From: Phoronis australis
Lineage: Eukaryota > Animalia > Phoronida
Assembly (NCBI GenBank): GCA_002633005.1
Contig: NMRA01000080.1
Span: forward strand, 1 to 64,000
DNA: 64,000 bases
Direction of reading: 5' to 3'
Shown here: positions 2,199 to 35,490 of the stretch, one piece after another
Numbering within the stretch: position 1 is the stretch's first letter
How the letters are laid out: the number at the start of each line of letters is the position of its first letter
Made by a program: the position numbers and the translations under genes
The notes under the pieces: model-generated
What the model was told of the DNA's origin: nothing
Seen by the model: only the letters and a program-made list of their open reading frames with translations
Database searches by the model: none

Positions 2199-2199
2199 N

Positions 2200-3644: not shown

Positions 3645-3696
<52 letters not shown>

Positions 3697-3784
3697 ACCA
3701 CTCAAACGAATGACGCTAGTGGTATACCTTATATATATATATATATATATAAGGTATACCACTAGCGTCATTCGTTTGAGTGGT

Positions 3785-3836
<52 letters not shown>

Positions 3837-7230: not shown

Positions 7231-7403
7231 AGGCAGAACCCTCACCGGTTGAGACTGGGCAACTCGACCTTGGAATATGCCTGCAGTGATCAAAAACACC
7301 ATGCTATTGTAGTCAGTTACAGGCACGGATCCAGAATTTTGTACACGGGGAAGGGTCCGTTTGTGCCCATTCTCGGGAAACCTCAGTAGGCACCGCTACT
7401 GCA

Positions 7404-7410
7404 GTGTGTG

Positions 7411-7475
<65 letters not shown>

Positions 7476-7585
7476 NNNNNNNNNNNNNNNNNNNNNNNNN
7501 NNNNNNNNNNNNNNNNNNNNNNNNNNNNNNNNNNNNNNNNNNNNNNNNNNNNNNNNNNNNNNNNNNNNNNNNNNNNNNNNNNNNN

Positions 7586-7646
<61 letters not shown>
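7404..7646. repeat. (TG)n and (TA)n microsatellites flanking a 110-N gap (7476-7585)
   Basis: Directly visible in the sequence. Confidence 0.99.
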
Positions 7647-7651
<5 letters not shown>

Positions 7652-13600: not shown

Positions 13601-13999
13601 TGCAGACAAGACGTGTGGCTTGGGGCACATCACCCGAGGGACAGGTTGGATACCTCACGATGGGCAGTAAAGTACCGCTCCCACAAAGGTCACAACCCAG
13701 CCAAACCCTGGGCGACCATTGAGCCGAAGTTGTGGTCGCTGTATATGACAGGCCCCTCCACTGTCGCCCTACCGCATCCACCTACCAGTCGTAGCTATAC
13801 CTTAACTACAAAGGAAATTGCACTACATGGCAGTGCAGACACAAATATACCTGGAGGACCTGGGGGTAACTCCCACCCGTGCCTCTTATGTTACAGGGCC
13901 ACCCAGCACTCCCGGCCGCGCGCCTAGCCAAGATGTTTTGAGATGTGCTTGGAACTCTTGCGGCCATTTTCATAAAGGTGGTTAACATTGAATTTGAAT

Positions 14000-14770
14000 T
14001 AGAACACAACAGAACAGTGCTGAAAAGATGTGGCTAACGAAGTGGTCATTCCACAAGGCAAACCATGACAGAGACAGGCCTCAAAACACGCAGCCGGACA
14101 ATAGGGGAAACATCAGGGTAACATTGCCTTTTGTGCCAGGGATCGCTGATCAGATCAAATCACATATGAGGGGACATGACATTGCTGTTGTATTCAAACA
14201 TGTTAACACCATAAGGAGTCAATTGTTAAATGTGATAGACAAAACCAGCAAAGAGAAAACATCGAATGTGGTGTATGGCATTTCATGCTCGGAACTGGGG
14301 TGTGGAGCAACATATATTGGGGAAACCAAGCAAGCCCTGAAAAGTCGTTTCAACCAGCATCGGAGGTCCAGTTATGGGGACTTCTATGATTCTGCAGTTT
14401 TTACTCACATGGCTTCCACAGACCACTCTTTCGCCATGGAAGATGTGAAGATTCTGGATAGAGAAGAGAATTGGTTTCGGAGAGGGGTCAAAGAAGCTAT
14501 CTACGAGAGAATCGAGAATTCTAGCCTCAATAGACAGGGGGGCTGCGGTTTCACTTACCTAGGACATGGGATAGGTCGCTGAAGAGAATCCCGCGGAAAC
14601 TGTGCGACGGATCACATGACAAGTCACGTGACAACTCAGTGGCCTGATGAAGTCCTCAAGAGGAGGACGAATCGTAGCCATCTCTACATAGCGTAAGTCC
14701 AGTAGTAGATTTATTTATTGTTTCTTATACCGACCCAACTGGATGACTGAAAACATTCATAGTAGTAGTA
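14000..14770 (+). mobile_element. 5'-truncated Penelope-like retroelement: GIY-YIG endonuclease plus 3' pLTR
   Basis: ORF 14028..14582 has TLPFVPGI, NVVYGISCSELGCGATYIGETKQALKSRFNQHR, SAVFTHM, KILDREENWFRRGVKEAIY and SLNRQGG. The 3' end reads CTGGATGACTGAAAACATTCA followed by (TAG)n. Confidence 0.9.
14639..14681 (+). ncRNA. Minimal type I hammerhead ribozyme motif (variant core) in the Penelope pLTR
   Basis: GTGGC-CTGATGA-A-GTCCTC-AAGAG-GAGGAC-GAATCGTA-GCCAT. Stem I is TGGC/GCCA, the core is CUGAUGA, and stem II is GTCCTC/GAGGAC. GAAAC is changed to GAATC. Confidence 0.7.
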
Positions 14771-15098
14771 TCAGTGTGGACATTTGCAGGTGTGTCTGTT
14801 ACCAATAAAATTAGTCACAAATGTCTGAAAGATTTTTTCATGATCAAATGGTTTCCTAAAAGAACTAGATAGGGAATACATTAATGTTATAGAAAACGAG
14901 AAAACTGGCGGCAAATCAATGAGCGTAAGCAACAGGCTTGGAGAGGTAATGGTCCAGACTAGCTGCACAGTTCCCACATTCGGGGATTCTGAAATGAAGC
15001 AACAGACAGTTAAAGGGCAATTGGAAACACTTAAAAATGAAGGCCAGGTAGGAAATTACATTGGTGAAAAAGGTCGCGAAGAAAAACTTTGACGGACG

Positions 15099-15315
15099 CA
15101 GTGGCGGATCTAGGATATCATGAGGGGGACCAACGTTTTTCGTTATGTGGTACCTGTGCCTAACAAACGTACACAAACTAAAGAACACGCCGACGATAAG
15201 GCGCAACATAATGAATACCCTAATTTAATTCCGTATAGTTTTTACTATTCACTTTTTGCTGGCGGACAAAGGGGAGGGTAGAACCCCTGCCCGGTCGTCC
15301 TTAAATCCGCCACTG
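15099..15315. mobile_element. MITE with CAGTGGCGGAT terminal inverted repeats; related copies or ends at ~11790-11803, 42205-42391, 51068 and 53477-53800
   Basis: CAGTGGCGGATCTAGG at 15099 and AAATCCGCCACTG ending at 15315, with G/C-run subterminal segments. Confidence 0.7.
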
Positions 15316-15779
15316 GGACCAAAGGAGCTCGGGCAGAAGAATCAAAGATGATGCCGTCTTTAGGCTCGCCCGTAACACTCACGAATGTGACGCCTTGCTC
15401 GATCAGTCTTATTCTGTGAAACCAGTCCGAATGACAATCTGCAACACGTTTCGGTCTACGTTTGAGTCCGTGTCGTAGTAAACATGAAAAATGAAAATAA
15501 TACGTTCTCGCTCTAAATTAATTGCATCGGTGTCTTTCAGCTCCACGGTTGAGCACACTTTTATCGCACAAGTCAGACGTCAATTTAAGCGTGTCAAACC
15601 TGGGTCAGGCCAGCTCTTTTAAGAGCTGGCTTAAAAGTTTAACCTGCTTTGAGATCTTAATACAGTTCTAAGGAATGTAATTCTCGTTGGTGAAATGAAA
15701 ACCGGTGTAAACCAGGTCTCAAATTGGGTTAAACCAGGTTTTACAAGACCACTGGTAATGACGCTAAGACACCTTTATT

Positions 15780-17360
15780 ACGTGCCATCTGGTCTAAAGT
15801 TCCTTGAGGAAAAAGGCCTTCTATCGGAATCACAGTCTGGTTTCTGCATTCTACTCTTACTTTAAACAATCACGCTACTGACATTATTTTAACAATTTGG
15901 ATCAGAGGAGGCTTACCGGTGCTACTTGTGTCCACCTTAATAAAGCCTTTGACATTGTGGGTCATGTAATCCTATTACAGCAACTAGAGTCACATGGAGT
16001 TAACGATAACGAACTTCTTCGGTTTAAAACTGATACGACCGCAAACTGGCTACCAAATACGGTAGCTTTCTTTCCAATTACTCAACCGTTATCACTGGCG
16101 TATCTCAGGGTTCAATTCTGGGCCCTCTATTATTCACTTTTTTGCTAACGATCTCCCTACCGTCCTCCACAACAGTGTACTAGTTTTATACGCTGATGGC
16201 GTCGCAGTTATGTCCACAACTGGCTCAGTAAAAGAACTTGAAACTTCTCTCAATGATGAGATAGCCCTTATCTATGACTGGCTTTTAAAAATAAACTCAC
16301 TCTTAGCATTTTTGAAACCAAGTCTATGCTGTTGGGAACCCACCACAAATTAAAACAGCAGAAATTGTCTCTTTTTACCAACGGTTCCCCTAGTGAGTGT
16401 GTCGACAAGTTTAAGTTCTTGGGCCTTATTTTAGGTACCAAACTTATATTTAATTTGCATGCAGATCACATCACAAAAATTGTCTTGGTAAATCGGCGTA
16501 CTTAACGTCTAGGTAAATTTCTTAATGTCAGCACTGTTAAGACACATTACCGTTCTATTGTCCAGCCCCATATTGGTTACTGGTTTCCGGTTTGGGACAT
16601 ACGAGCGACAACCTCGTAAGCAAAGTCAAGGCAATCCATAACAGAGTCGCCAGGGCTACCCTGGGTACTAGAATTAGGGACAACCGGTTCAACGAATTGT
16701 ATTCCAAGCTTGGATTTTTGAAAGTAAGACAAAGAAGTAAATATCTCTCTGCCTGTTGCATGTACAGCTGTCTCAATGGCTTAGCTCCAGCATATCTCAG
16801 CTGCAAATTCAGTAGCAGTCAAACTTTATATTCTACAAGTTCTTCCGTTGTTGGTAATGTTTGCTTAAAAATCAAAACCAAGACGGGCAAGAGATGTTTT
16901 ATGTATGCTGCTACTGCAGTATGGAACTATCTTAGCCCAGAAATTAAACGGCCCAATTCAGTTAATGTCTTCAAATTTCATATTAAAAAGTGGCGGTAAT
17001 TTATTTTCCAATTCTTACATCTGTATCTGTCTTAATTATGCCATTTTTCCAAACTGTAAATACACTCAGTACTTATTACCAACTTTGCATTTAATTTCCT
17101 GTCTAGTTTATTCATCCTTCGTCATTTAGTTATTTATAATCTAAATTCCCAGCCTGTTTTGATTGACCTTATACTCCAGGCCTTAGGCACACAGTACATA
17201 TCTAATATATATACACACACTCATATATTGTTTTATCACTTTATTGTATCATATTGTACTGTATTGCATCTTGCTATTGAGGGCCCTCTTGGAAAGCAGT
17301 GCTGAGACTGAAGAGGCCACCCTCATTTTAAATGTATGTATTATAATAAATAAATAAATG
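15780..17360 (+). mobile_element. 5'-truncated, decayed L2/CR1-group LINE (reverse transcriptase pseudogene)
   Basis: Frameshifted RT motifs LLSESQSGF, LNKAFDIVGH, GVSQGSILGPLLF and LYADG, then KFKFLGL and the C-terminal GKRCFMYAATAVWNYL. The 3' stem-loop GAGGGCCCTCTT...GAAGAGGCCACCCTC is followed by an (AAAT)n tail. Confidence 0.9.
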
Positions 17361-17907
17361 AAACAAGTCCACTTTAAATCAGGTTTAATTTTAAGCCACC
17401 TTTATGAAATCGGCCGTTACAGTCCAAATCAACGACCAACAGAGAAACAAACAAGGAAAATCGCTGGCGAGTTACAAAAACATGCGGCATACCTCACAAT
17501 GAAATGAAAATGCGCTCCAACTTACATTGTATGTAAAATAAACCCTAAACAGAATAGAGCGAAAAAGAACCCAATTCACTTCCCTAGCGTCTTGTTAACA
17601 TTTTCTTTTCTTTGTTAGGATCTGATGTGGAACATATATGAGTAACAGCCCATGAGACTTATTCGGAAGCGCCTACCTCGACGACAAAACTCGTGTAGTT
17701 TTATTCTTTTGCACAAGACCTCCAGCAAAATCTTACACTGGCTAATCATGGAAAGATTTCCTTATCGTCAGTTGTGCTATGAGTCAGACGACATTTAATT
17801 TACTGTATGAATATTTCACAATTTCACCCCTCTGATTTTTCAAGCCCCAGTAGACCGAGCTAGGCGGCTCTGCAACATCAAGGAATACTTCAGTGAGTTT
17901 TCCGAAG

Positions 17908-17980
17908 GTACATGTATGTGATTTCTAATTTTTGCATTGGTTTTGAGACTATACTTCAAAGGACGTGTCATCTTTTTTAG
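17908..17980 (+). other. Probable short intron upstream of the giant NRPS exon
   Basis: Donor GAAG|GTACAT at 17907/8 and acceptor TCTTTTTTAG|GT ATG at 17980/1. The upstream open frame DRARRLCNIKEYFSEFSE joins in phase 1 to G-MTSDE. Confidence 0.55.
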
Positions 17981-17982
17981 GT

Positions 17983-20900
17983 ATGACCAGCGATGAAACA
18001 ACAAAATCTAAAGATGCTACTATTGTTGGTGAGGACGTCAATCATGAAGTCTTTACGATCAGCCAAAAACATTGCTCAGCAATATCTGACATTGTCTCAC
18101 CTGCTAGCTACAGCACAGTAGAAGCGTTGGTATGTATTGCGTATGCTGTGCTCATCCGTTATGAAGGCGCCGATAAACCCCCCTCCATTGTCTTGGCGTT
18201 TGCTAGTCCTCTGCAGGATGAACAAGAATCTGACACCTCTTTGCAGAATTACGACAAAAATACTTCTGACGGCGAATATTCAACAGCTCTATTTCCTTGT
18301 GATGTCAATGGTCATATTTTGAACCTGCTTTTGTCTCAGCGTCTTGAGCTTGAAAAATGGCCTGTAGCGCTTTCTTATTTTAGGCGCAGCAGCCCAAACG
18401 TATACATGGCGTTCGATCTTCCGCGCGAGTTCAACCGAAGCAGCCAAAGTAAGCAGTCTGCAATTAAGATCAGCATGGTCCTTCAAATAAATGGGGATTA
18501 TACATGTTCAGTGCATCAAAGCACAAGCTGCTGTAACAAACCGGTGACGAGATTTCAAGATCANNNNNNNNNNNNNNNNNNNNNNNNNNNNNNNNNNNNN
18601 NNNNNNNNNNNNNNNNNNNNNNNNNNNNNNNNNNNNNNNNNNNNNNNNNNNNNNNNNNNNNNNNNNNNNNNNNNNNNNNNNNNNNNNNNNNNNNNNNNNN
18701 NNNNNNNNNNNNNNNNNNNNNNNNNNNNNNNNNNNNNNNNNNNNNNNNNNNNNNNNNNNNNNNNNNNNNNNNNNNNNNNNNNNNNNNNNNNNNNNNNNNN
18801 NNNNNNNNNNNNNNNNNNNNNNNNNNNNNNNNNNNNNNNNNNNNNNNNNNNNNNNNNNNNNNNNNNNNNNNNNNNNNNNNNNNNNNNNNNNNNNNNNNNN
18901 NNNNNNNNNNNNNNNNNNNNNNNNNNNNNNNNNNNNNNNNNNNNNNNNNNNNNNNNNNNNNNNNNNNNNNNNNNNNNNNNNNNNNNNNNNNNNNNNNNNN
19001 NNNNNNNNNNNNNNNNNNNNNNNNNNNNNNNNNNNNNNGACCTACAACAGAAAATTGCTGTTCAACTTCCATCATATATGGTTCCAGCGTTTGTTGTATT
19101 CATGCATTCATTCCCCGTAACTGCTAATGGGAAAGTGGACCGCCGAGCGCTGTCTGAGGTAGACTTTGGTAAAAAAATCAACGACAATACAGACTCTCCT
19201 CTGCTTGAAAAGAGCTCAGGAACGAAAATAGCATCGTTTACAGAAAGGGAATCTCTTCTTGCTGAAACATGGAGCAAAACATTTAATGTAACGTTAGAAG
19301 AACTTTCACCTTCGTCATCTTTCTTTGAAATTGGCGGTGATTCCATTTCTGCTATGACTGTAGTCGCTGAGGTTCGGAAGAAAGGTTTTAGGATATCGGT
19401 GCAGCAGGTTTTGGGTAACCCTAGGCTTTGTCAACTTGCCATGATAGCAAAACCAGTCCGGAGTGTTCAAAATGGCGAGGTGCAACATCACTTAACACCG
19501 TTTGTTCAACTTACTCCAGCCCAGATTTGGTTCTTTGTACAAGAGTTCAAAAACCCACATTTCTGGAACCAGTCGTTCCTTCTTCAACCAAAGAAACAAA
19601 TTGAAGCATCCCAGCTGACTTCAGCCTTAACCAAACTGATTAGACAGCATGAAATGTTGAGGTGTACGTACACCCAAACATCTGAAGGTAAATGGATACA
19701 GAAAATAAAGGACACAAAGATGCCATTTCTCAGAACCAAAACATTAGAGAACTTGGACATGCTAAACGAAGAATTAGACAAGTTAAAATCGTCTCTTAAT
19801 ATACACGAAGGCCCTCTATTGGCAGCTGGTCTATTTAATGTCGGTAATGTGCAAAGAATCTTTTTAACAGTTCATCATCTGGTTGTTGACCTTGTTTCGT
19901 GGCGTATCATTCTCGAAGACCTTGAAAAAATGTATGAAGGACACCAAACTGAAATGCCAAGCATGTCATTTCAAAAGTGGTCTTTACGCTTACGACAAAT
20001 GGCTGAGCCCATTATGCGTGATGCATGGCCGAAAGAAACTGAAGCCATGCCACTACTGATAGATTTTGGAAGTAATTTAATTCCAACATCTAGCTACAGA
20101 AAGGCAATTATTTCTGAGCTTGATCACAGCGTAACCGCTGCTTTGGTATCCTCTGCAAATTCTTCATTCAAAACTAATACTGCAGACATTTTGCTTGCGT
20201 CTCTAATTCTTGCATACAACGAATCATTTGGGTTAAAGGATCTGCAAATTGACGTTGAAGCTCATGGTCGTGAGCCGGGGTGTGACACAGATGACATTTC
20301 AAGAACTGTTGGTTGGTTCATGACAATGTTTCCGCTGAAGTTAGAAATCTGCCAGGGTTCTTCACGCGACACCACCATGGAAAACACGCTAAAATTGGTA
20401 AAAGAAAAATTAAGAAATATACCGAATCGCGGGATGCCTTTTTGGCTTTTGAAGTTTTTGAAGAACTCCGATGAGACAAAAGTTCAAAAATCAGACGTAC
20501 TTTTCAATTACTATGGTCGATTCGATCAAATTCAAACCAAAAGTGCTTTGTGGGACCTTGCCGACGAGTATCCTTGTGGTGAGGATGAGTTCAGTGCAGA
20601 AGAAAAGCTGACACATAAAGTGGTCGTTGAATGTAGTCTGAAAGAAGAAAAACTCCACATGAAGATGTTTTACTGCACTGATATCCACCGAAAGACGACT
20701 ATAGAATCATGGATGGCGAAATGGAAAGAGAGTTTAACAAATCTTGTGTTACACTGCATAAGAGATGACGTCTTTGGATATACACCGTCAGACTTTCCGT
20801 TACTGAAACTTTCACAGCACCATTTAGATGAGCTATTGTCAACAAGACTTGCACAATTGGACCTTGAAGCTGAACACGTTTCCGACATGTATCCGTGCAC

Positions 20901-23900
20901 GCCCATGCAAGAAGGCTTTTTATTTAGTCTTTTGAAAGATACTGCTGCTTATGTGATACAGAGGTCATGTACTATCAACGGCTCAGTCGACCAGCACAAG
21001 CTACAAGTGAGCGTTTATAAAGTGATTTTAAGACACGACATTTTGCGAACACGCTTTATTGCGGACAGATTAAATGGCTGCATGCAGATAGTACGGAAAA
21101 CTTTCCAACCCCAGTGGACAATTGAGGACTGGTCTGATCTTGAAGAAAACGAACGTTCTAAAAAAGAGATGGAATTCTTACAACATGATCGCTGTTCAGG
21201 TTTTAATTTCTCAGAGCCAATGCTAAGGTTTGCACTGTTCAGGAATTGCAAAGAAACGTACCGCTTCATTATTTCCTCTCACCATAGTTTAGTGGACGGC
21301 CAAACGAGTTCATTGATTCTTCAGGAAATAATACTGGCCTACAATGACGCCGTACTGCCGGACTCACCCTCATTTAAGGAATACGTCAGAGAAATGATTG
21401 ATTATAACACGACTTGCTACAAAGCTGAAGGTTTTTGGAGAGAAGAAATGTATCAACTACCTGACCGTGGCAACCTTCGTTTCTTGCCCCCAGAAAGTCC
21501 ACAAACGGGGTATGCTGTTATTCACCACTCAACAATGTATGGAAAGGTGGGAGAAATTCAGAAGTATGCAGAGCACCATGAGGTTTCAGTTGCTACCATA
21601 ATCTGTGCTTCTTGGGCTTACGTAATCAACAAATATTCTTGTGATCCAAACGACGTCATTTTTGGTTTTGTCGTGTCTGGACGTGGGACCTCTCATATTG
21701 AAAATGTTAACAGATTAGTTGGTGTAACCACAAACACTTTGCCATTCAGAGTGAAGATTCAAGACCAACACGTTCCCGAGTGGCTACAATACATCCACGA
21801 AAAGTTAACAGCTATTCTTGAACAAGAAAAGTCGTCCATGTCAAATATACAAAAATTGTGTGGACTAACTCCAAACGACATACTTTTCGAAACTCTTGTA
21901 TCTTACAATACAAGGAACAGAGAAATGGAGTCTTCCTTAAAATCAGCATCTTTCGATGTCTGCTATGTCTATGATCATGAATTCACGGAATATCCTCTCG
22001 CACTAGACATTCTCAACAATGGTAATGCTATTGAAATCAAAGCAGTGTACGACAAAGATATTTTGGATGAGTCAGCAGTTGTGCAGATACTCAAACAACT
22101 AGAAAGAGCCATGTGGTGGATAGCAACAGCGTCAAACGAATCTCGCATAAGCGAGTTTGACATTGTGAGTCCTGAAGAACATTATGTATTGAAAAACTTC
22201 AATCCAGTCGATAACTATGATCGACAACTGGGGCACTTCAAAGGTGTGCATCAAGTATTTGAAATGATGGTGGAACGCTGTCCCAAAGAGCATAAGGCAC
22301 TGATCATGGACGATGCGTCATTAACCTACAGAGAACTCAACTCAAGTGCCAACGCTCTAGGTTTACGACTCCGATCTCTTGGCATTTCACGTGACGAGAA
22401 GCTTGGACTTCTCATTGATCGAGGAATAACTATGGTTATCGGAATGCTGGGAATCTGGAAAGCTGGAGGAGCCTTTGTTCCTATTGATGCTGCCCAGCCA
22501 TTGGACCGCGTGCAGTTCATATTGGAGGATTGTGGCTGCCAAATTGTTTTAAACTGCAGCTCCGTCGACATCAACTTATTACCACAGAAACAAACGCATA
22601 TTAGTTTAAATAGCCATACCCTTGCTACGTACAAAAATCAGAGTGTTTGTAATCTGGAATGTGTCAATGAAGCACGAGACCTTTCGTATATGGTTTATAC
22701 TTCTGGTACAACTGGGCGACCAAAAGGCGCCATGGTTGAACATCGTGGCATAATTAATAGCTTGATGTATAAGCCTGGGGGGCTTCTTGATGTGACCCTT
22801 CAAACTAACGTTATGCAGAACTATGCCGTCGGATTCGACGCTGCTGTCTTGGAAGTGTGGACAACACTTTGTCATGGTGGGTGCCTTTTTATTCCTTCTG
22901 GCGATTTTACGAAGATGATGAAGATAGTCGATGCTGTTGGGAACACACCGTCTACTCTTGCTATTCTCGACCCCATTGATTATTCTAATTTGAATCTTGT
23001 TCTTGTGGCTGGTGAACCGTGTTCGTCAGCAATGGTGAAAGTCTGGGGCAAAAGTGTAGTTCTAGTAAATGGCTACGGACCGACAGAATGCAGCGTAATG
23101 TCTCACAATAGTCGACTGTTGCCAGATAAACGAGTTTCAGTTGGCAAGCCTGTGCCAAATACCAAAAGCTACGTTCTAGACAGCTATCAGCGTCCTGTTC
23201 CACCTAATATGACAGGCGAACTTTATTTAGGCGGAGTTAACGTTGGACGAGGTTACCATAACAGACCGGATTTGACAGAAAACGCCTTTTTCGAAAACCC
23301 TTTTGATACTGGACGAATGTATAAAACTGGTGACTTGGCAAGATGGTTGGAAAACGGGGAAGTCCAAATCATTGGGCGAATTGATCATCAAATCAAAATA
23401 CGAGGCAAACGTGTAGAACTCGAAGAAATCAGGTCTGATATTGAATGTCTTCCGGGTGTAACACAAGCACACGTCCTTGTTCAAGACAAACATTACATCG
23501 TTGCGTATGTCATGACTTCTGCTGCACTCAATCAATCCAATCTTCTTTCACATTTAAAGAAGAAACTTCCAGGTTTTATGGTACCGACGGCAGTATTTTT
23601 CATGGAAAGTTTTCCACTTACAGCAAACAAAAAGATTGACCAAAAATCTTTACCAAAATTTGAGCCCCAAACAACGCATTATAAGGGTGCAACTCCGTCT
23701 AATAATTTTGAAAAAATGATTCTCAACGGTTATAGAGAGGTTGTGGACCCAGGTTTTAACATGGAAGATGATTTCTTTGACTTTGGAGGGCACTCCCTTT
23801 CAGCAATACGCCTAAAATCGCTGCTTTCAGAAAATACAGGAATCGACATTTCCATGGTCGATGTTATGCAATTCACCACGCCGGCTGACCTTTCCGCAGA

Positions 23901-26900
23901 ACTAAGCAACAGAATGCTGTTTCCAAAAAAGAAGCAACAAACGGCATTCATCATTCCAAAAACTTGTCCAATCGACGCCGAGAAGATTATTTCGGCCAAA
24001 GCATCCTGTCGACAAGAACAAATGTGTTTATTGTATGAACTAATTCCAAGTAGTCCAGTGTACAATGTTACTGTAATCCTCGCATGTCATGGATTATTAA
24101 AAGTGGATATTCTGACAAAAGCTCTTAGACACATAACGACAATGCATGCTTCGTTCCGCACCTCGTTTACGAGGTCTGCTGACAATTCTTTTTATCAAAC
24201 AATAACACCCGAAAAAGTCTACGATCTAGACTTCAGCTACTTTGACTACACAGGACAATCGGATAGTAGTCAACAGAAAGCACGTGAACTGCTGTATAAA
24301 GAAGCTGCAAAACCGTTCGAACTTTATTCTATTCCACTGGCCAGATTTGTACTGGTCAAACTATCAAACAAAGTTCATCATTTGGGAATATTTATGCACC
24401 ACTCCGTCACTGACGGAGCCTCAATTAAGATAATTATTGAACAGTTGGGTGAATGCTATTCTTCGTTACTGAATAATTATCAGTTAACTATTCCGCCACA
24501 AAGATTAAACTACATCGATTACAGCAATTGGGAGAGGAAGCTACTAGATGGTGGCGAAATGGAGAGACAACTAGAGTTTTGGAAAAACAATTTAGAAAAT
24601 GTTGCTACTATTATGGATTTACCGCGAGATCGTTCACGCCCCGCCATTCCATCCTATCGAGGCGCAACTGTCTTCTTTGATATTCCAGAGCTTGTTTCAG
24701 AAAAATTGATGAAATGTGCCCTTGAATGTGGGGCAACACTTTTCACATCTCTGGTATCTACGTTTGCATTACTCATTCGAGTGTATTGTCAAGCTGACGA
24801 CGTAGTTGTGGGTGCCTTCTTCTCTGGAAGGCACAACCCCGGTGTTGAAAGCCTAGTAGGTTACTTCGTGAACACTCTTCCTGTAAGAGTTCAGTTCGAG
24901 GAAAATACCACATTCAAATCCCTTTTGAAATATGTGAGGAATTTGATGCTTGACGTTCTTGATAACCAGGACGTTCCATTTCAGAAGATCCTAGAATGCT
25001 TGAATGTACCACGTGATACGTCTTATCACCCCATCATTCAAGCAGCAACTGTTCTTCAAGAAGGTTTTGCAAACATGCACTTTGGCGATGGACTTTCTAT
25101 CGACGTTCAGACCTTCGAGCAATTCACTGCAAAGTTTGACTTGAACTTGGAGTTTGTGAGACAAGAGAGTGGAAAGTTGAGTGGCCATTTCGTATACAAC
25201 ACTGATATATTCAACCGTTCTACCATACACAGAATGAGCCAGACTTTGTTACACTTGTTTGAAGTGCTAACAACAAACCAAGACACGCCTTTTAGCTCTT
25301 TAGACTTGCTACCACCATGTCAGTCAGCCCTTATTAAATCGTTTAACAGGACGGGAGATTTTTGCAAGCTTCGCATGCACCAGCAATTTGAACAACAAGC
25401 AGAACTTGTACCAGACAGTATTGCAGTTGAAGAAATTGACAGGCACATAACGTACAGAAGCTTAAACGCAGCTTGTAACAAATTGGCACGGAAATTGCGT
25501 TCTTTTGGGATCGTTCCAGACGCCATAGTCGGCGCTGTTTTTGACAGAAACTTAGAATTCGTTGCTTCTGTCTTAGGAATTATGAAATCTGGCGGCGCAG
25601 TCCTTTCAATTGAAGCGACTGTTCCGAAAAGTCGTGTCGATTTGATGCTCGAGGACGCCGGTTGTAAAGTGGTTGTTACTACAAGCAAAGTAAAATCAAC
25701 AGGAGTTCTCGATTCCTTTCAAGGGGAAATTGTGCTGGTTGATTTACAAAAGTATACTACACGCTATGAAAGTGATAAATTTGATGAGAATGACTACGCC
25801 AATTTGGAAAACGTTTCTGATGCAAGACATCTGGCATATATTGTATACACGTCAGGAACAACAGGGAAACCCAAAGGGGTTATGATTAATCATTGGGGCT
25901 GTGAGTGTCTGATTGCTCGATCATGCAAAGAGTACAGTATCACTCATGGAACAAGAGTAACTCACTTTTTCAACATAATGTTTGATGTCGCTTATCAAGA
26001 GATGCTAATGACTTTAACCAGTGGAGCGACACTGGTCCAACGAGAAAAGAACTTTCTTAATACTTTGAAGAAAGTCGACGTAGCGTTGATGTCGCCATCT
26101 GTTCTGGCTTCTCTGGAACCTAGTGATTTTCCAAATATCAAAAGGGTGATAGTTGCCGGCGAAATACTCCCAGAGTCTGTAGTCAATAAGTGGGAGAAAC
26201 ACGTAGAGCTCTACAACGAATATGGTCCGTCAGAAATAACGATTGTGTGTACTTGGGGGCTGACAAATGGAAACTCTAAAGTTACTGTTGGAAAACCTAT
26301 TACCAACTGCTCAGTGTACATTTTAGATAACAACTTAAGGCCAGTCCCCATCGGAGTGAAAGGTACAATGTACCTTGGCGGAACTGGGATTGCTAGAGGA
26401 TATGTAAAGCGGCCGGATTTGACACAACAGAAATTCATCGACAACCCCTTTAGCGAGGGAAAACTTTACAATTCGGGTGATTTAGGTTCTTGGACTGAAA
26501 ACGGAGAAATTATAGTAGCAGGTCGCAAAGATAGGCAAGTTAAATTAAGAGCTTTTCGTGTAGAACTCGATGAAGTCGAGCATGTTATGAGGATGCAGGA
26601 TGGAATTTCAAACGCAGCATCTGTCGTGAAAAATGACGTTCTTGTGGGATACGTCACACCAGACATAGGAAGTGCTGGCGTTTTTCAACTGAAGAAAAAT
26701 CTACAAGACAAACTCCCTCGCTATATGGTTCCATCAGTGATAGTTCCTTTGTCAGAATTTCCTATGTCAAGCTCAGAAAAGATTGACTATAAAAGCTTGC
26801 CTGAACCCAGTGTTGGTGACATCGAGATACTGACTAAAAAAGAAGAAATTTTGATCGAAATATGGAGTGAGGTTCTACAAATCGATCCATCAAAAATAAA

Positions 26901-29900
26901 GTCAAGCGACTCATTTTTTTTTCTGGGTGGTGATTCTATTTCTGCCATGAGAGTATTTTCTCAGGGAAGAAAACGCAGACTTCGTTTTACAGTACAACAA
27001 GTATTCCAGTCCAGGAGCCTGTCTCAGCTTGCACATTTAGCAAAGTTTGTCGGTGTTAAAAGATCTACAGTCAAGGAGAACAACAAGGAGATATCGGGCA
27101 ATGTGCCCTTGACCCCTATTCAAGAATGGTTTGTCAACTTAAACCTTCATAATCGCAATTGCTTCAACCAGTCACTACTACTAAGACCATTGCTGAACGT
27201 TAACCCAACAATCCTCCAAAATGCCATTCATGAACTTATCTCCCATCACGATATTTTGCGTGCTTCATTCACATTTAAAGAAGGTGGGAATGCAAATCAG
27301 GAAATCCAACCATGTGACAAAGCTCGAACGCCAAAGTTGATTCACAAGAAAATTGATGAAGACCGGCTGGACGATGAGCTTGGGAAACTTCAAAATTCAT
27401 TGGATTTAACATCTGGTCCCCTTCTGGCGATTGGTCTATTCGACATTGTTGGCCAGCGGCAGTATCTGTTCATAACTATCCATCACTTGGCTGTGGACCT
27501 TGTTTCTTGGCAAATCATTCTGGAAGATCTCGAAACACTATGTCGCGGAAGCTCCCTGCAACCAAAAACTTCTTCATTCAAAGAATGGTCAGAGCTTCTG
27601 ATTTCCGACTATACTCCAAGCCTCAATGCAGATGATTGGCCATCATTGGAACAAAGCAGTCCTTTAAAAACCGATTTTTCGAAAAGCATGGAAAGCATCG
27701 AAAGCGCAAGTCGGGTGCTTGAATCAATAGAGCTAGACAAAAATACAACAAACAAATTACTGAGTCTTAGAGGGACTCATGGGAACGATAGCCCTTCGAT
27801 TAACGACGTTCTTTTGACTGCTTTAATTGTTGCTTACTATGAGTGGACCGGGGAAACATCGTTGACTGTTGAACAAGAATGGCACGGGAGAGAACCTTGG
27901 ACTGACAAACTCGATCTTTCTCGAACTGTCGGTTGGTTCACTGCTATGTTTCCTGTCACATTGGCTTTGAAAAATCGTACAGACAACTTACTGGAACACC
28001 TTGAAGAAATAAAACGACGACTTCAAAGAATTCCTAATAACGGTATGCCGTACGGCGCTATGAGGTACTTGAAAAAGGACAATGATCCAAAGTTTAACCA
28101 ACACAGTGACGTTGTGTTCAATTACCACGGGAGTGCCACGATGTTCTCTAAGGAGAATAGCCTGTGGGATGTCTGCACAAACGGCAATTACACTTACAAC
28201 AACCAGTGCAAGTACGAAAAGATCACTCACATGTTGGCTATTGAGTGTTATATTTCTCATGGACGCCTTCAAGCCGTCTTCATTTTTAGCAAAGACCTTC
28301 ACAAGACTAAAACCATTCAATCATTGGCACAATCCTGGAAGAAAGTAACAGAAAATATCTTGGAGTCACTTCAGCTTAGCTGCAAAATTTCTGATATGCC
28401 TTCGAAAACTCATGATAACAAAGTGAAGACAATGGAAGATGCATTGAAAGTAGCGCATATCAGTTTGGACGACGTGGAAGATATTTACGCGTGTACACCT
28501 CTGCAAGAAGGGTTGATATTTTCTTTACTTCAAGACAAGTCGTCCTATTTAGTGCAGTTATGTTTAAACATAACAGGAAGGCTTGATGTTGAAAGATTCA
28601 AATATGCCTGGAGTGTCGTTATTAAACGTCACACAGCTTTGCGAACGAGCTTTATTATTGATTCCGGAAGCCATTCTTTGATTCAAATAGTAAGACGCCA
28701 GTCTGATCCTCAATGGGAAGTGGGATCCTGGATTGATTCTGAAGAAACGGAGAGTGGTTTTGTAAAGTTAGACAGGACGAAGGGATTCAGTGCAAACGGA
28801 ATTCTAATTAGATTTGCTTTAATGAAAACAAGCGAGTTCAGTCACAAGTTTATTTGGACCTTCCATCATTCAGTTGTTGATGGATGGTCTTCTCCGCTCG
28901 TCCTCAGAGACGTTTTGAAAGTTTATCACGCTCACGATCTTCCACCCGCCCCTTCGTTTCGTTTTTTTGTGGAAAATTGCAAATCCCGTGACATATCCGC
29001 TGCACAAACTTTCTGGTCACAGTACTTGTCAAATCTGAAACCAATGCGAATCTTGACGTTGTCGACAATTCAGGGATCCTCTGAATGTGACACCAAGCAG
29101 GTGTTGCGTACATTTTCTACAAAGCTGGAAGATCTGAAGAAATTTGCAAGGGAAAACAGTTTAACGACGACCTCTGTTATGTATGGGGCGTGGGCATTAG
29201 TTTTGGATCGGTATTGCAGTAGCCATAGGAGAGACGTAGTCGTGGCCGTTGTCGTCGCATCGCGAAGTGCCGACATTGAAGGAGTCGAAGACGTAGTTGG
29301 TCTACTGCTCAACACCTTGCCACTTCGCATAACTTTGCCTTCTGACGAAAGAGTAACTTTTATAGAATGGCTAAAGACCATCCACGAAAATCAAGCTGCA
29401 ATAATGGCTTATGATTATAGCAATTTAGCTGACATACGGAAATGGAGCGGTCTTCCAAGAAATCAGAATCTGCTTGATACTCTGGTTACATACGAAAATT
29501 ACCCAGCGTTTGAAAACTTCAAAGACCAAGAAATCGAATTTTCTGCAATCCATGGATATGAAGACATTGATTTGCCTTTGGGAGTTCTTTTCGGTGATGA
29601 CGGCGAATATCTCATGGCTAAGTTTATGTACGAAGCAAATAGTGTCAGCAATGAATTAGCCCACCAGATGTTGGCTCACTTGAACAATCTTTTAGATGAG
29701 ATACTCCTTTCTGATAGCTCAAAACCAGTGATTCATGCCGAAATTGACACTAAACATGCCAGTGTCGGAAGTGCACTAACTGACGACGTCACATACTCGC
29801 TCTGCATTAAAGATCAACGTGGTCGATCTTGTCCAAACGGTGTTATCGGGAAGTTGTATATACAAATCAACAAGGGTGATGACGTGGTTTACACTGGTGT

Positions 29901-31909
29901 TCTTGCAGCATCACAGATTAACGGTGACATAACAGTCGTTTTGGATAACGAAGTCAACTCAATACCAGAGGAAATCGATGGGATTGAAGGGTTGCGAGGC
30001 TGTTTTATTTCAGAAACTAATGAAGGTGTATTTGCCTTCATTAGCTCCGAGTATCCTATGCCCTCTGCGACATTGCAGGATCTCAAATCGATACTTGGAA
30101 GGGCACATGCACCATTGTGTGTTCTCCCAGTTCACTTCACCGTTGTCAGTAAAAACATTCTTAAAGAAGTAACCGAAGTACCGTCGGAGGTCCGGCAAAC
30201 GGAATACAAACAATCGTGGCAAGGTAGCAGTGACGTCATGGAAATGTTAACTGACAAGGAATTGATGCTTCGCGACATGTGGGCAAAACTCCTGAAAATG
30301 AACTTAGGCGACATAAAACTTGACCATTCTTACTTTGATCTCGGTGGCACCTCAATATCAGCAATTAGCTTGGTATCTATGGCTGAAAAGCGGGGGCTAC
30401 AGTTTAGCCTGTCGGATGTAGTGCAGCTCGAAACACTTGCAGAAATAGCCGCAGTTGCCGAATTAAAGGCGGACGAGGGCGACATCTTGGTTTGTTTAAG
30501 CAGCGGTCATCCCGGCAAAAAACCTATCATCTACATTCACGCCAGTGACGGTGGGGTATCGTCGTTTTCCTACGTTGTTGGTAAGTATAGTATTTTGCAG
30601 GGAGTGCACTTTTGAATGACTTTTAACGGGAAAGCCAATGTTTTAGTTAGTCTTACATGAGTTTAATCTGTCATTTAATTTCGTAAACACGGCGGTAACT
30701 CCAGTTACGATACTTTATTAATGTTGAATAGGCCTAGCTTGTTATGTAATGGTCAGGGGTACACTCGATTGTGAGCTACAATATGTCTTGAGGTAACTGA
30801 TGAGGTTTTTTAGTACAAATAACATCAGAATATTCATATGACTTTCCCTTCAGAGTCACTGCCCTAAAATTAGCACGTGAATTCAAATATCAATTAATAC
30901 GATCTAAATACATGAACAACAGTTATTTCGAGTGATTAGATAGTCGTAATTTAGAAGTGCTGTGTTCTCGAACGTGTTACAGCCATCGAACACAGGGAAG
31001 CTACATGATCTATGACTTCGTTCCAAAGTGTACTTCCTATATAACGAACACATTGTCACGGTAAAATGCTACACCATGGTGCAAAAAAATTAATCAAGCC
31101 CTACTTAAAATTTCGAATTCGTGTTTTGATTGGTGACCGCCAAAATTTTTCGAAGTTCTTTTGGACAATAATTCTTGCCCACTTTGAACTGTGACACGTG
31201 TTTGTGCCTATGCATTTTAGATATCTTATCGATGTATGTGTACCTCTTTAACGCAACTACGTGTCTTCCAGGCCAACTGAAGAAGCACCCGGTGTATGCT
31301 TTCCGTTTTCTGCTTGGAAGTACTCCATTCGAGTCAATTCCTCAACTTGCCTCGCTGTATGTAGAGCGAATGAAGCAGTTGGACTTCTTTTACACTGAAA
31401 CCCCGTATGTTCTAGTTGGATATTCGTCAGGCGGGGCTATAGCTTTTGAAATTGCGCTGCAGCTTCAAAAGATTGCCCGGAGACCGGAGACGCTAGTTAT
31501 TCTTGACGGAAGTCCGGATTTAATCGCAAAATCGTACACGAAAATCTTGAAGAGCTCCGAAAAGCAGATGGAGGCTCACGAGAAATGGCTTCAAAACACT
31601 TGGAATGAAAAAGGCCTGAACGAAGACGATTTGAAGGTTGGACTGTCACTGTTTCGAGAAACTCTGAATATTTACGCCTCCTACGTTCCTTCCACCATTT
31701 ACGACGGAGACGTCAAGCTGGTACTTGCAACTGATATACTAACAGAAGGACCGCTATCTGAAACTCTTGCTGAGCTTCAAAAACAAGAGCGCGACTACGG
31801 CACCCAACGTTTGTGCTCTAAACCAGTGCGAGTTGTTGACGTTGATGGCGACCATTACACCATGATGAGAGACGAAAAACAGATTATAGCGAAGACTGTT
31901 GTCGAATAG
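17983..31909 (+). CDS. Multimodular non-ribosomal peptide synthetase, spliced: join(17983..30580,31272..31909), possibly with extra 5' exons. Domains (C-like)-A-T-E-C-A-T-C-A-T-E-C-(degenerate A)-T-TE
   Basis: The 4216-aa ORF has two full sets of A-domain core motifs (YTSGTTGxPKG, NxYGP(T/S)E, Y(K/N)(T/S)GDL) plus the A1 C-terminus. It also has four carrier serines (GGDS, GGHS, GGDS, GGTS), three HHxxxDG C domains and two E domains. The TE starts in this ORF and continues in ORF 31175..31909 through a canonical in-frame GT-AG intron. The frame across the N-gap 18564-19038 cannot be verified. Confidence 0.95.
19039..19450 (+). other. NRPS module 1: C-terminal end of A1 and carrier domain T1
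   Basis: LPSYMVP (A9) and VTANGKVDRRAL (A10, catalytic Lys) follow directly after the gap. SFFEIGGDSISAM (Ser codon ~19342) is the GGDSI type usually found before E domains. Confidence 0.92.
19500..20760 (+). other. NRPS epimerisation domain E1
   Basis: LTPAQIWFF, HHLVVDLVSWRII (19873), EAHGRE, SRTVGWF, IPNRG and FNYYGRFD, followed by the typical E-C linker YTPSDFPL. Confidence 0.92.
20880..23910 (+). other. NRPS module 2: C (DCL-type)-A2-T2
   Basis: C domain: YPCTPMQEG, HHSLVDG (21280), FGFVVSGR. A2: LTYRELN, YTSGTTGRPKG (~22696), FDAAV, NGYGPTE, GELYLGG, YKTGDLARW, GRIDHQIKIRG, NKKID. T2: FFDFGGHSL (~23785). Confidence 0.93.
23995..27050 (+). other. NRPS module 3: C (LCL-type)-A3-T3
   Basis: C domain: SCRQEQM, VYNV, MHHSVTDGAS (24397), VGYFVNTLPVR, QDVPFQ, AKFDL. 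A3: YTSGTTGKPKG (~25846), FDVAYQE, NEYGPSE, YNSGDLG, LPRYMVPS, EKID. T3: FFFLGGDSISAM (~26926). Confidence 0.93.
27100..28380 (+). other. NRPS epimerisation domain E2
   Basis: PLTPIQEWF, FNQS, HHLAVDLVSWQII (27481), EWHGRE, SRTVGWFTAMFP, IPNNGMPYG, FNYHG. Confidence 0.92.
28480..30465 (+). other. NRPS terminal module: C (DCL-type)-vestigial A fragment-T4
   Basis: C domain: YACTPLQEG, FHHSVVDGWS (28864), VGLLLNTLP, YENYP. Only ~170 aa lie between C and T, with eroded A6/A7-like text (IKDQRGRSCPNGVIGKLYI; VYTGVLA). T4: YFDLGGTSISA (~30343). Confidence 0.85.
30581..31271 (+). other. Spliceosomal phase-1 intron inside the NRPS thioesterase
   Basis: Donor G|GTAAGT at 30580/30581 and acceptor GTCTTCCAG|GC at 31271/31272. 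Joining gives ...SFSYVV-G-QLKKHPVYAF... in frame. Confidence 0.9.
31272..31909 (+). CDS. Last NRPS exon: type I thioesterase core
   Basis: PYVLVGYSSGGAIAFEIA (GxSxG nucleophile), LVILDG (acid) and VDGDHYTM (His) complete the catalytic triad. Stop TAG at 31907-31909. Confidence 0.92.
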
Positions 31910-34619
31910 TCCGTGTAAAAAGCTACATTTCTTTTTCACTGGACCTACTATTGCTACTAGGTACATAAATATTTACAACGGACACTAACAGAACTGATCA
32001 TATATAATTTAATCTGAGAAATGGACTGTCGAACAATGTCGCGTAAGAATGTTTCGCACGGGCACGATTATGCGCTTTTGCCGAGGACAATGCGTGAGGT
32101 CCACCTGTGCCTACAACCGAAACTTTGGTACGTGCGCCTGTAGGCAAAACACCTGAGTAAACAACTTTCTTTGAAAAAATACGCTATTTCAGGCCTAGGG
32201 AAACTAGTGAGTACAAACATTGTCTAGCTTATATGCATACTGTTTCTGAAGTCCGCGAACTTCGTGCTGACAATGACGAATTAGTATCTGCATAAGTTTA
32301 GAGCAACCTAACATACCGCATCTCTTATATATGTACCAAATAGGGTCTATGGAAACAGCCCGTACCTAAAGCCTAGAAAACAACCGGGCAATACTGTTGA
32401 TCTGTTATAGACTGTGTATTTACGTTTACATTGTTTATCATTTCGAGTTAGGTGTAGTGTGTTGATTACGTTTGGTTTAGGTGCTTTATGTGTTCAAATT
32501 CGCAGCGATGACGTCGTTTGCAAAGGAGGCTTAGTTTGGGCAATGACAAAGCTAAACGACTGAAATATATGCGATGGAAAATTTCTGTTGCTTTTCATCA
32601 TGACGTTGGTTGTGTTGAATCCCGGGTGATGAGTACAGTAAGAGTCTATTTGTATCTGTAGATCAGCGCGTTTTGAACCAATCTGTACACATAGGCATGA
32701 ACTAGTTTGAGAATGCTTAACACACTAAAGATGTCATTTAAATGCGTTAACCAACAATTTGCCAATACATGTGCATTTACTGGATTAACCAAAAGTAGAG
32801 AAAAATGAATACTGAGAATAACGTAAAAATAAAGATGTCAGGTAAGGGAGGGTTGAGGACATAGTAAAAACAGGAGTCGCAAAGCACCATCCAATGCGAA
32901 AAACAAATGTAAGACAAAGAAACCACTTGACCTAATATAACATAGGCCTATAGATAAACACACAGATTGGTGCACTGACGTGACGTTAATATTAAGATGA
33001 GAAGCAAGTAGAGACATCATAACGAATATACTGTAACACTCAAGTCATATCTAAGTGCGCTAACTGGGAAGCGCTTCCGAAGCTCGTTTACAGTGGGCAG
33101 CAATTGTGTAGTTGAGATGTAAAGACACACGTCATGAAAAATGACATGACAAGTAACAGAGTTCATGTACAGATACACTATATACGCGAAAGTGTAAATG
33201 TGAGAGACAATCTGCCACAGCAAAAAAAAAGAAAAATCTGTTTCGGGCAATGATGGAAAAGGGGTGTTTCATTTCAGAACAATACTTGCGGCGCGTCTCA
33301 ACATAATATTTACACTTACGTTAAACAATAGACTGGATCGGCATAGTACCGGGACCGCCAAATCTGTATGTCCTAAATGGACAAAATCTGTGATCGTAAA
33401 CACAAAGCGCCACCAACAGTATCCAGGCCGAGAAGAGACAGTTCACTAACGGCGGCTTGTTTGAGTCACGGTTTTACTTCCCACAAATATGTCGTCTGCT
33501 CATTAATTGGAAAGTGGTGCCTCTTTTGACAATTCCACTCAAATGAAAATATCGGAGTTGCGAATCTGTTGTCTATGAACTATGGTTATAAGAGACATAA
33601 TCGACGACATATGAAGCATTAATAAAATGGATAAAATTACACACATTTATATCCCAAAATGCTTCAACAGTTGTTCAAAACTTTTTCTCAAAAATTATTC
33701 TATTCTGTTACGTGAACTGCTTTCTTTTGCTTTTATTTTTGCAAAAATCCTCGATTCCAGTGACCCTGGACTTCTCCTGCTCTTTTGTGAACCACACGAC
33801 TTCCGGGTACGCTGCCTTACTAGTCGCATGCACTCTTTGCCCTTGGTGTAATTTTAGAGTTCAAGCATGGCGTCCAAAACATAGCACTTTTGTACTAGTT
33901 GCCCCCAACACATTGCATTGGTTAGTAAGTAACTTTCAGATTGTCGGGTTTTGAAGGAGGATTTGGCCACTCGGGAATTAATAGGCGGATTTTGTAAAGT
34001 TATATGGACTAGTAAAGACCATTAGAAGATTTAGGACTCGGTGAGGGATTCATTCGGTTAACTGGTATAAGACTAAAACCATTACAAACTTTTCCAAAAC
34101 AATTTCAGGCTTAAGGTTAAAACTCTAGGACCAAATTCAAAATGTTAAGAGTAAAACAATTATACCTAAAAGCAAAGTATCCCGTAGCCGGACAAAAAGT
34201 CTAAATAGAAATGTCTTGTTTGGTTCATGACAGGCATCCAAACGGTGCCATGCAGATGCATTTACGTGTGTCTTTTAATCATGCCTCTTGGTTATTTGCT
34301 TTACCAATGTTCAGTTGAGGGTCGAACTTAGTTCAGAGAATACGATCGGAACGGAAGATTGCTAATAACGACAAATGTCGTGTATTCAACCAATGTTGTA
34401 TTTTCGGAACGAAAACGCATTAATTGTCGGATCGAAAGGTTTTACGCCTGCAAGTGCTTATAGGTAAAGTGAAATGGTACATCGCGTACTAAAATCTCCG
34501 GCGGTCGATCTTTCACACTTTTTGGCTTCTCATTGAATTCCCATAGAACTGAATTGGGTTATGACCAAGTTCACCCGAAGAAATAGGCCCCTGCACATAA
34601 AATTAACTTTGTAGAACCG

Positions 34620-35490
34620 GTCCAAAACATCGAGAGATTTTGAGAAGAATCACTAGATCCACCCAGAGTTAAAACTGTGTCGTTGGCATATTTCTTAATC
34701 TGATGAGGTCTGGTCCTCATGGAGATAATGTCACTTTCCTGATTTGCATAAACACTAAAGCCATTATTCTAGCACATAATGTGAAAAGACGTGGAGAGAT
34801 TGGGTCTCCATGTCGACATCCTCAACCAACTTCAAAATATTCGGATGTGAAATTATTCTGGATCATAGAAGGTCTCGATCCCTCATTCAGTTTAAAGACG
34901 AATCCACTTCACAAAGTTCTCTATAAAGTTAAACATACATTTCGATGAAATTGAATCGAACAGTTCTTCTAATTCTAATAGGACAAGAAGTCATACTGCA
35001 TCAGATCGTACACGTTTCAGGTGTTGTCGCCGATGTATCTACGTCACATTTGTTGAAAATACAAAGCAAAGTACAATAGACAAAGCAAACATACACACAA
35101 ACCACGCGTGCGCATAACAAAATTGAAACCTGTGCGTACTCAAATAACAAAAGAGCCAAAGAGGACCATCTATTTTCAGATACACCGTTTCTGAAAAGTA
35201 AATATTTCCCTTTGAATATACTTGAACGACCCCTTCTTGAAAATTGCGATTGAGGGATAAGCATTCCTGAGTCTTTATTTGGTGGTAGATGTGACATTTT
35301 CCAAGACAAAGGATCTACTTCAATAAAGCCTGTTTGATTTTCACACTGTATGGTACTAATTACCACATTTAAGTGATTTACAAGACAACCAGACAAAACC
35401 TTAAATCTACCATTTACGTGAATTAAAATGCGGCGCCAACTAAAATATTCTTCAGCCTTCTTGAACTCCGTTAAAATAGTTTTCAACGGT
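34620..35490 (-). mobile_element. Decayed L1/Tx1-clade LINE reverse transcriptase fragments
   Basis: Minus strand reads WRRILIHVNGRFKVLSGCLVNHLNVVISTIQCENQTGFI (RT domains 1-2), then FVKWIRL, SEYFEVG*GCRHGDPISPRLFTLCA and KYANDT (eroded RQGDPLSP and YADD). Confidence 0.8.

Follow-up and report, generated by a model that had tools for sequence, protein, structure and literature searches.

We analysed the first 64,000 nucleotides of contig NMRA01000080.1 of the phoronid Phoronis australis (assembly GCA_002633005.1; hereafter the window) and found that they carry a spliced, expressed nuclear gene of the animal host, not contamination, encoding a nonribosomal peptide synthetase (NRPS). On the evidence set out below, this gene probably encodes a transcribed and spliced multimodular NRPS of bacterial type which is predicted to make a peptide of three or four residues with D residues at positions 1 and 3.

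The gene lies on the plus strand and spans about 14 kb, from an ATG at 17983 to a stop codon at 31907-31909, and the open frame and the splice junctions confirmed this start and this end, which had been proposed in the initial annotation. In the open reading frame (ORF) listing of the window, a single plus-strand frame was open over 17965-30615, broken only by an assembly gap of 475 N at 18564-19038; the last exon, with the thioesterase (TE) domain, was carried by a second ORF at 31175-31909. None of the 4,252 visible codons is a stop. The length first given for the protein, more than 4400 aa, has to be lowered, as 4,252 residues are visible and 4,411 are reached only when the 475 N are counted.

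The domain order was determined from overlapping 500-residue tiles, numbered from the end of the gap (Table 1). Following an N-terminal piece of 193 aa and the gap, the visible order was A1 tail-T1-E1-C2-A2-T2-C3-A3-T3-E2-C4-(A remnant)-T4-TE, where A is adenylation, T carrier, E epimerisation and C condensation. Over the 3,858 residues that follow the gap, Pfam identified five stretches of Condensation (1054 bits), two AMP-binding, four PP-binding and two AMP-binding_C domains, and the Thioesterase match (2.4e-19) was found on the second ORF; the 199 frame residues ahead of the gap matched no family. The epimerase signature TIGR01720 of NCBIfam scored 113.5 bits on E1 and 72.7 bits, just below the cut-off of 74.2, on E2, and a scripted motif scan found the E-type HHL(V/A)VDLVSW in both domains. 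By the same kind of scan, HH...D was present in five of the five condensation-fold domains, HHxxxDG in all three C domains, and the phosphopantetheine Ser within GG(D/H/T)S(I/L) in all four carriers. Domains A2 and A3 each contained the core motifs A3, A4, A5, A7, A8 and A10, and their specificity codes begin with D and end with K, so that the Asp235/Lys517 pair is present; GYSSGG and GDH were found in the TE, the triad Asp being read by eye. Catalytic motifs were intact in all 12 visible domains. The count of four T, three C, two E and one TE domains made at first sight was thus reproduced by Pfam, TIGR01720 and the motif scan, and the protein has the A core motifs (in A2 and A3), carrier Ser, HHxxxDG, E domains and TE of a type I multimodular NRPS. 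C2 scored 307 bits on a profile built from matches of C4 against 127 bits on a C3-type profile, while C3 scored 436 bits on a profile of its own type against 250 bits on the C4 type. Identities within the protein were 36% between E1 and E2, 39% between A2 and A3 and 31% between C2 and C4, arguing against a recent internal duplication.

Three raw RNA-seq runs (X6, X7 and X8) and a small contig set (X5) were aligned to 16500-33500. The runs gave 1,085, 1,129 and 27 aligned reads, respectively, and nearly all X6 and X7 reads had their first mate on the minus strand, as expected of sense RNA from a plus-strand gene. Intron 2 was spliced in 13 X6 reads with 9 different starts, in 5 X7 reads with 5 starts and in one X5 contig, and RNA depth was 0 across 30675-31241 compared with 22-36 in the neighbouring bins; in the DNA contigs the intron was present. 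The joint was called in the reads as 30579->31271 (GT..AG, cut +1) and is placed on the sequence as 30581-31271, with G/GTAAGT at the donor, cttccAG/G at the acceptor and a frame which runs on into the TE exon. Such GT..AG splicing rules out a bacterial contig. At the other end, four X7 reads carried unaligned letters before 17981 which match 4582-4611 on the plus strand with 1 mismatch (0.00 matches expected by chance). An acceptor, ttttttAG, was found at 17979-17980 and a donor, GTAAGT, at 4612, and a non-coding exon 13.4 kb upstream is very probably joined to the coding exon by splicing. Read by eye, the frame leading up to the exon 1 junction is interrupted by a stop at 4536-4538 and contains no ATG between that stop and the junction, so that translation likely starts from the ATG at 17983. 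Downstream, RNA depth stayed at about 18 to about 32375 in X6 and X7, and an X5 contig extended to 32833.

The first exon was found inside a perfect palindrome at 2199-5281, whose arms (2200-3740 and 3741-5281) are 100% complementary with zero spacer and adjoin a single N at 2199. The palindrome is probably a fold-back assembly artefact, and the letters of the exon recur on the minus strand at 2870-2899.

The surroundings of the gene also point to a host genome. A decayed Penelope-like relic lies within intron 1, where tblastn aligned residues 550-768 of a 780-aa Lytechinus protein at 13851-14602 with 40% identity. Its ORF of 194 aa matched 6 of 236 candidates at E<=0.001, with relatives at 37-47% identity, and both named ones were from echinoderms (Lytechinus variegatus, 40%; Amphiura filiformis, 41%), a resemblance which, taken by itself, would suggest an echinoderm-like host. 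The GIY-YIG domain in this ORF was weak, at 20.2 bits against a cut-off of 22.6, and a protein atlas grouped the ORF with GIY-YIG / HTH_animal clusters. At the window edge, a THAP zinc-finger ORF of 111 aa (63528-63860, minus strand, 7.4e-12) may belong to a relic of a transposase of the P-element-like or THAP9-like kind. Of the transposon relics listed in the initial annotation, these two kinds were recovered, whereas no L2, L1/Tx1 or hAT domain was found in the 123 flank ORFs of at least 70 aa (2 of 123 had any Pfam match) or in 150 of the 272 ORFs of 48-69 aa (0 of 150). The GC content at third codon positions (GC3) was 0.40, compared with a GC content of 0.37-0.40 in introns and flanks. 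No tailoring gene was seen in the window.

DNA depth was taken from four contig sets of one sample, contig depth being a coarse measure. Over the gene it was 14.8-37.6 in set X1 and 10.1-33.8 in set X3, compared with 17.4-20.7 and 28.6-32 in the unique 3′ flank at 33592-34900. The initial annotation had placed the gene in the host genome and had named a spliced transcript and a host-like read depth as ways to check this. Stranded RNA-seq with intron 2 removed and a gene depth like that of the unique flank, not aberrant, agree with that placement, as do the Penelope relic in intron 1, the flank-like composition and the mostly synonymous polymorphism described below. Among the X1 contigs, 254 of 533 were at least 99% alike and 279 of 533 were 95-99% alike, and we infer that these two classes are the two haplotypes of a heterozygous diploid. 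One X3 contig skips 60, 142 and 283 nt within 30656-31277, the region of intron 2, which suggests that in the second haplotype this intron is much shorter or rearranged.

High-copy repeats were found on both sides of the gene (16328-17655 and 32928-33591), with DNA contig depths 10-50 times those of their neighbours; in X1, depth reached 1026 at 16992-17655 and 161 at 32928-33591. Positions 16732-16764 were transcribed in X6, X7 and also X8, in which the NRPS is silent, and reads there carried a 33-letter replacement of 16765-16929, indicating that they come from other copies of the repeat.

The RNA reads differed from the reference by a few percent. A total of 409 differences was counted, and the 40 that were listed all lay in the coding frame; 25 of them were synonymous and 15 non-synonymous, and random single changes would be synonymous in 22% of cases. 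Among coding indels, the only one with good support was an in-frame deletion of 3 nt at 28417, between E2 and C4, present in 24 of 34 X6 reads, 21 of 42 X7 reads and the X5 contig, and the fully supported indels of non-triplet length fell in the 3′ untranslated region (UTR). The NRPS is under purifying selection.

With respect to the product, specificity codes were read from the columns of an alignment in which six A domains of TycC yield their codes for Asn, Gln, Tyr, Val, Orn and Leu. The A2 code, DALGLAGVMK, was matched to no substrate. The A3 code, DVQLIAEIVK, equals the proline code DVQFIAHVVK at 7 of 10 positions, and the A3 substrate is predicted to be proline-like. Since both E domains and the DCL-type C domains after them are intact, it is reasonable to predict D residues for positions 1 and 3. 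The initial annotation had proposed a D,L,D peptide; its D positions are kept here, and the length of three residues which it implies does not suit four carriers with a C domain before the last. The line is not colinear, in that four carriers are accompanied by two intact A domains and one A tail at the gap. Modules without an A domain are loaded by another A domain in yersiniabactin HMWP1 and in fungal siderophore (SidC-type) synthetases.

On this basis we propose the following sequence of steps. A1, if it is whole within the gap, would load residue 1 onto T1, and E1 would epimerise it. C2 would couple residue 1 to the A2 substrate, C3 would add the proline-like A3 substrate, and epimerisation by E2 would give D-aa1, L-aa2, D-Pro-like. 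C4 would then need an aminoacyl-T4, whose loading would fall to a different A domain, either within the enzyme or outside it, and the TE may free the tetrapeptide by hydrolysis or cyclisation. In its fullest form, this model holds that the animal itself makes an alternating D/L nonribosomal peptide including a D-proline-like residue, using an anciently acquired synthetase which has no close public relative, with the A-less module charged by another A domain and the tetrapeptide perhaps cyclised by the TE; we put this forward tentatively. That the peptide serves in defence or signalling is pure conjecture.

We further searched for relatives of the protein. With the C-A-T module (residues 600-1650), 1,862 of 1,867 scored candidates matched, and the best 120 listed were 26-31% identical and mostly bacterial; the list was ranked by summed score and drawn from proteins of 2,121-6,752 aa, so that shorter orthologues of moderate similarity could be missed. 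Seven of the 120 matches listed were eukaryotic, namely one gall midge and six early-diverging fungi. The gall midge entry, P0003, is a 6,605-aa NRPS-like protein of Contarinia nasturtii that ranked third by summed score with 28% identity, and it may be an animal-resident multimodular NRPS or a contaminant. A HMMER search of 1.84 billion representatives with the TE exon gave 1,071 matches at E<=0.001, of which 11 reached E<=1e-10 and none reached E<=1e-30. The best match scored 74.8 bits, with 43% identity over part of the domain, and the clusters of the ten best matches came from metagenome, Basidiobolus, Picocystis and Izhakiella, with no animal among them. The A remnant together with T4 and the start of the TE, searched against proteins of 540-2000 aa, matched none of 5,251 candidates scored, which is weak evidence. 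No close relative of the NRPS was found in the protein collections searched.

Among solved structures, the best relatives of A2 were LgrA (1.6e-152), TycA and GrsA. A terminal TE in place of the fungal-type terminal C domain, and E domains paired with DCL domains, fit a bacterial-type line. Because of the TE end, the E/DCL pairing and A domains which are most like those of Bacillales, an ancient acquisition of the gene from a bacterium is probable; introns and the host base composition would then have been gained later. We also built a FastTree phylogeny of 73 rows (69 E domains from the matches, E1 and E2 of the window and two window C domains as the outgroup), in which E1, E2 and a long-branched chytrid E domain grouped together (SH-like 96). 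This grouping was distrusted because of its long branches, the biased sample and the absence of bootstrap.

Several observations weigh against the main reading of the gene set out above. The NRPS was called complete in the initial annotation, a description that does not hold with A1 in an unbridged gap and module 4 lacking a working A domain. After the gap, A1 was seen only as its last ~40 residues, with canonical A9-A10 motifs. DNA contigs reach into the gap, at most 167 letters from its left side and 115 from its right, none bridging it, and RNA reads also extend into it; in the overhanging contigs, the frame continues past 18563 (…DHFLLLAEEV…), and from their sequence these letters resemble the end of a C domain. 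At its nominal 475 nt the gap is too short for a whole A1, an A domain requiring about 1.4 kb. With a gap of that length, ~168 aa would separate the end of the C domain from the A9 motif, a spacing near the ~150 aa of the degenerate module 4, suggesting that module 1 is perhaps equally truncated and may be without a working A domain. The canonical A9-A10 motifs argue against such a truncation. As for module 4, the ~185 residues between C4 and T4 had no Pfam match, and residues 3557-3740 gave neither an AMP-binding match in Pfam nor a BLAST match to the 120 NRPSs. The AusA model ran through this remnant into T4 (tile residues 139-311 to model positions 1829-1993, E 1.5e-8), and an A-domain profile built for this analysis matched it weakly (E 5e-4, 8.4 bits). 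By these matches it is classed as a C-terminal A subdomain without the catalytic core, and module 4 is predicted to be unable to activate an amino acid itself.

The N-terminal 193 aa had no match to Pfam (0 families) or NCBIfam (0 families), no significant match to the C or A profiles built for this analysis, and none to the rest of the protein by BLASTP. The atlas gave a lead, with 16 of the 30 nearest clusters in the PF00668 set and a score of 0.93 on few shared features, and the N-terminus is perhaps half a C domain, in which case the gene may be a fragment of a larger ancestor. No NRPS-like sequence was found elsewhere in the window by tblastn of 7 NRPS relatives, and profile searches of the six frames of 5300-18563, which include most of intron 1, revealed no NRPS relic upstream. 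The RNA cover was uneven as well. In X6 and X7 it was about 0-6 over 17634-25004 compared with 17-36 over 26139-32375, for which 3′ bias along an mRNA of 14 kb or a shortened transcript could account; the full-length mRNA is backed by few reads, a shorter 3′ transcript is possible, and in X8 the NRPS was nearly silent. Two indels of 1 nt occur in A-runs, one at 30516 (2 of 22 X6 and 3 of 26 X7 RNA reads) and the other at 26791 (one contig in one of the four DNA runs, from one sample). They are probably errors, with frameshift alleles possible at both sites. Finally, no single domain is more than 38% identical to any of the best 120 database NRPSs.

An expressed but decaying relic, acquired as a piece of a larger NRPS and losing modules, from which no peptide is made, or of which only the 3′ half is transcribed with another role or none, would account for a number of these points, including the N-terminal piece that matches no family, the A remnant of module 4, a nominal gap too short for an A domain, an RNA cover of the 5′ half that is 5 to 30 times lower, and the lack of a close relative in the collections searched. 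We consider such a relic unlikely, as decay is at odds with 4,252 visible codons free of stops and intact motifs in the 12 visible domains, with a polymorphism of 25:15 biased to synonymous changes, with a well-supported coding indel which keeps the frame, and with the canonical A9-A10 motifs of A1.

A working enzyme could also make another product than the one predicted, such as a tripeptide that leaves from T3 while module 4 stays idle, a dipeptide built with A2 and A3 only, or a peptide from modules used iteratively as in fungal siderophore synthetases. Two certainly intact A domains against four carriers, and the need of A-less modules for loading by another A domain, speak for such products. 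C4, T4 and TE keep their catalytic motifs, which would be unexpected for an idle module 4, and the intact E1 and T1 imply that position 1 is used; products of this kind therefore appear quite improbable to us. An origin of the stretch in a non-animal eukaryote (fungus or protist), or a microbial contig misjoined to animal DNA, might be read from the early-diverging fungi (6 of the 120 listed matches), from Basidiobolus among the ten best TE matches and from scaffold gaps and a perfect palindrome that resembles an assembly error, but it is highly improbable when transcripts join the coding exon to one 13.4 kb upstream across an echinoderm-like Penelope relic, GT..AG splicing excludes a bacterium, DNA depth equals that of the unique flank with both haplotype classes present, GC3 equals flank GC, a THAP ORF lies in the flank and RNA runs labelled with the same species carry the transcript.

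Table 1. Features of the NRPS gene and its intron in the window, with tile residues counted from the end of the gap.
Feature	Position	Strand	Tile residues	Basis
Non-coding first exon, 3′ end	4582..4611	+		Matched by spliced-read ends; donor GTAAGT at 4612
Intron 1, 13.4 kb, GT..AG	4612..17980	+		Loose ends of reads, not an aligned junction
Penelope-like relic, 5′-truncated, inside intron 1	13851..14602	+		tblastn; atlas
Giant coding exon, start codon 17983	17981..30580	+		Open frame; sense RNA; 3′ end set by spliced reads
N-terminal 193 aa, possible C-terminal lobe of a truncated C domain	17983..18563	+		Protein atlas lead only
Assembly gap, 475 N, expected site of A1	18564..19038	.		Flanking A1 tail
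A1 tail (A9-A10, LPSYMVP...NGKVDR) and T1 (Ser of GGDSI at 19333)	19039..19437	+	T1 73-133	DltA model positions 463-500 on residues 3-40
E1	19504..20835	+	156-~573	Condensation fold; TIGR01720 113.5 bits; HHLVVD at 19873
C2, after E1	20881..22182	+	615-1048	HHSLVDG at 21280; groups with C4
A2, code DALGLAGVMK	22270..23634	+	1078-1532	AMP-binding 225.6 bits; TIGR01733 361.5 (cut-off 317.4); A3-A10 motifs
T2 (GGHSL)	23758..23901	+	1574-1621	Pfam, motif scan
C3, LCL-type by context	24010..25326	+	1658-2096	Pfam; HHSVTDG at 24397
A3, code DVQLIAEIVK	25387..26808	+	2117-~2590	TIGR01733 307.5 bits (cut-off 317.4); A3-A10 motifs
T3 (GGDSI)	26848..27039	+	2604-2667	Pfam, motif scan
E2	27097..28416	+	2687-3126	TIGR01720 72.7 bits; HHLAVD at 27481
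C4, after E2	28474..29706	+	3146-3556	HHSVVDG at 28864
A-domain remnant, predicted C-terminal subdomain only, no A1-A7 core	29707..30258	+		AusA model; weak match to an A-domain profile
T4 (GGTSI)	30268..30453	+	3744-3805, then TE start	Pfam, motif scan
Intron 2, 691 nt, GT..AG, phase 1, within TE domain	30581..31271	+		Spliced reads
Last coding exon: TE (GYSSGG, GDH) and stop	31272..31909	+		PF00975 2.4e-19
3′ UTR, end approximate; AATAAA at 32828-32833	31910..32833	+		RNA depth; X5 contig reaching 32833

We then compared the gene with known systems. It is most like the tyrocidine and gramicidin NRPSs (Brevibacillus TycC, LgrA, GrsA), which gave the top summed scores in the C-A-T module search and share with it A-T-E followed by a D-donor C domain, A-T-C elongation and a terminal type I TE. 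It differs from them in its identity, 26-31% over C-A-T and at most 38% per domain, and in having spliceosomal introns, host composition, a truncated N-terminus and a last module without an A domain. The single A-T type of Ebony and Sm-NRPS was not found here, as the gene has five condensation-fold domains and four carriers, nor was the nemamide type of polyketide synthase (PKS)-NRPS, no PKS domain (KS, AT, KR) being among its Pfam matches.

ACV synthetase (ACVS) of springtails and Plectus is likewise a multimodular NRPS encoded by an animal, and it too contains an E domain and a TE. Its order, A-T-C-A-T-C-A-T-E-TE, comprises three A domains and a single E (PMC10531068), whereas the window gene has four carriers and two E domains, each E being followed by a C domain, in another order. 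The domain order thus upholds the early view that the layout resembles neither Ebony nor ACVS. The bdelloid rotifer NRPS/PKS genes (PMC11258130; PMC10531068), acquired by horizontal transfer, are also bacterial-type megasynthases resident and expressed in an animal genome, but belong to another phylum and number dozens of copies per genome. The mollusc FmtATR of the bursatellin pathway (PMC11869996) is a bacteria-like NRPS gene with animal introns that was argued to be animal-encoded; it differs in being monomodular (Fmt-A-T-R) and clustered with tailoring genes.

The novelty first claimed for the gene has to be reduced. According to Suring et al. 2023 (PMC10531068), 1,059 animal genomes were screened with antiSMASH, and NRPS clusters were listed in three echinoderms (Ophiothrix spiculata, Patiria miniata and Patiriella regularis) and two molluscs (Lottia gigantea and Modiolus philippinarum), which were judged unlikely to be contamination, though on short scaffolds. 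These clusters are reported there without domain order, splicing, expression or selection data, which are available for the window gene. Our literature search found no echinoderm NRPS paper beyond this one, and animals were represented by one insect only among the 120 listed C-A-T matches and by none among the 10 named TE clusters.

Taken together, these results go beyond the survey-level listing of NRPS clusters from short scaffolds to a gene model that specifies introns, the order of the domains and a predicted stereochemistry. With its first and last modules truncated, the gene is a natural example of how a transferred assembly line is remodelled in an animal genome. The D-amino-acid peptides of marine invertebrates are usually credited to microbial symbionts, and a host gene can now be tested against metabolite data. 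The locus is a good target for product discovery. If the reading of the gene as a working peptide synthetase is true, the animal would itself make a class of small molecules that is normally credited to symbionts.

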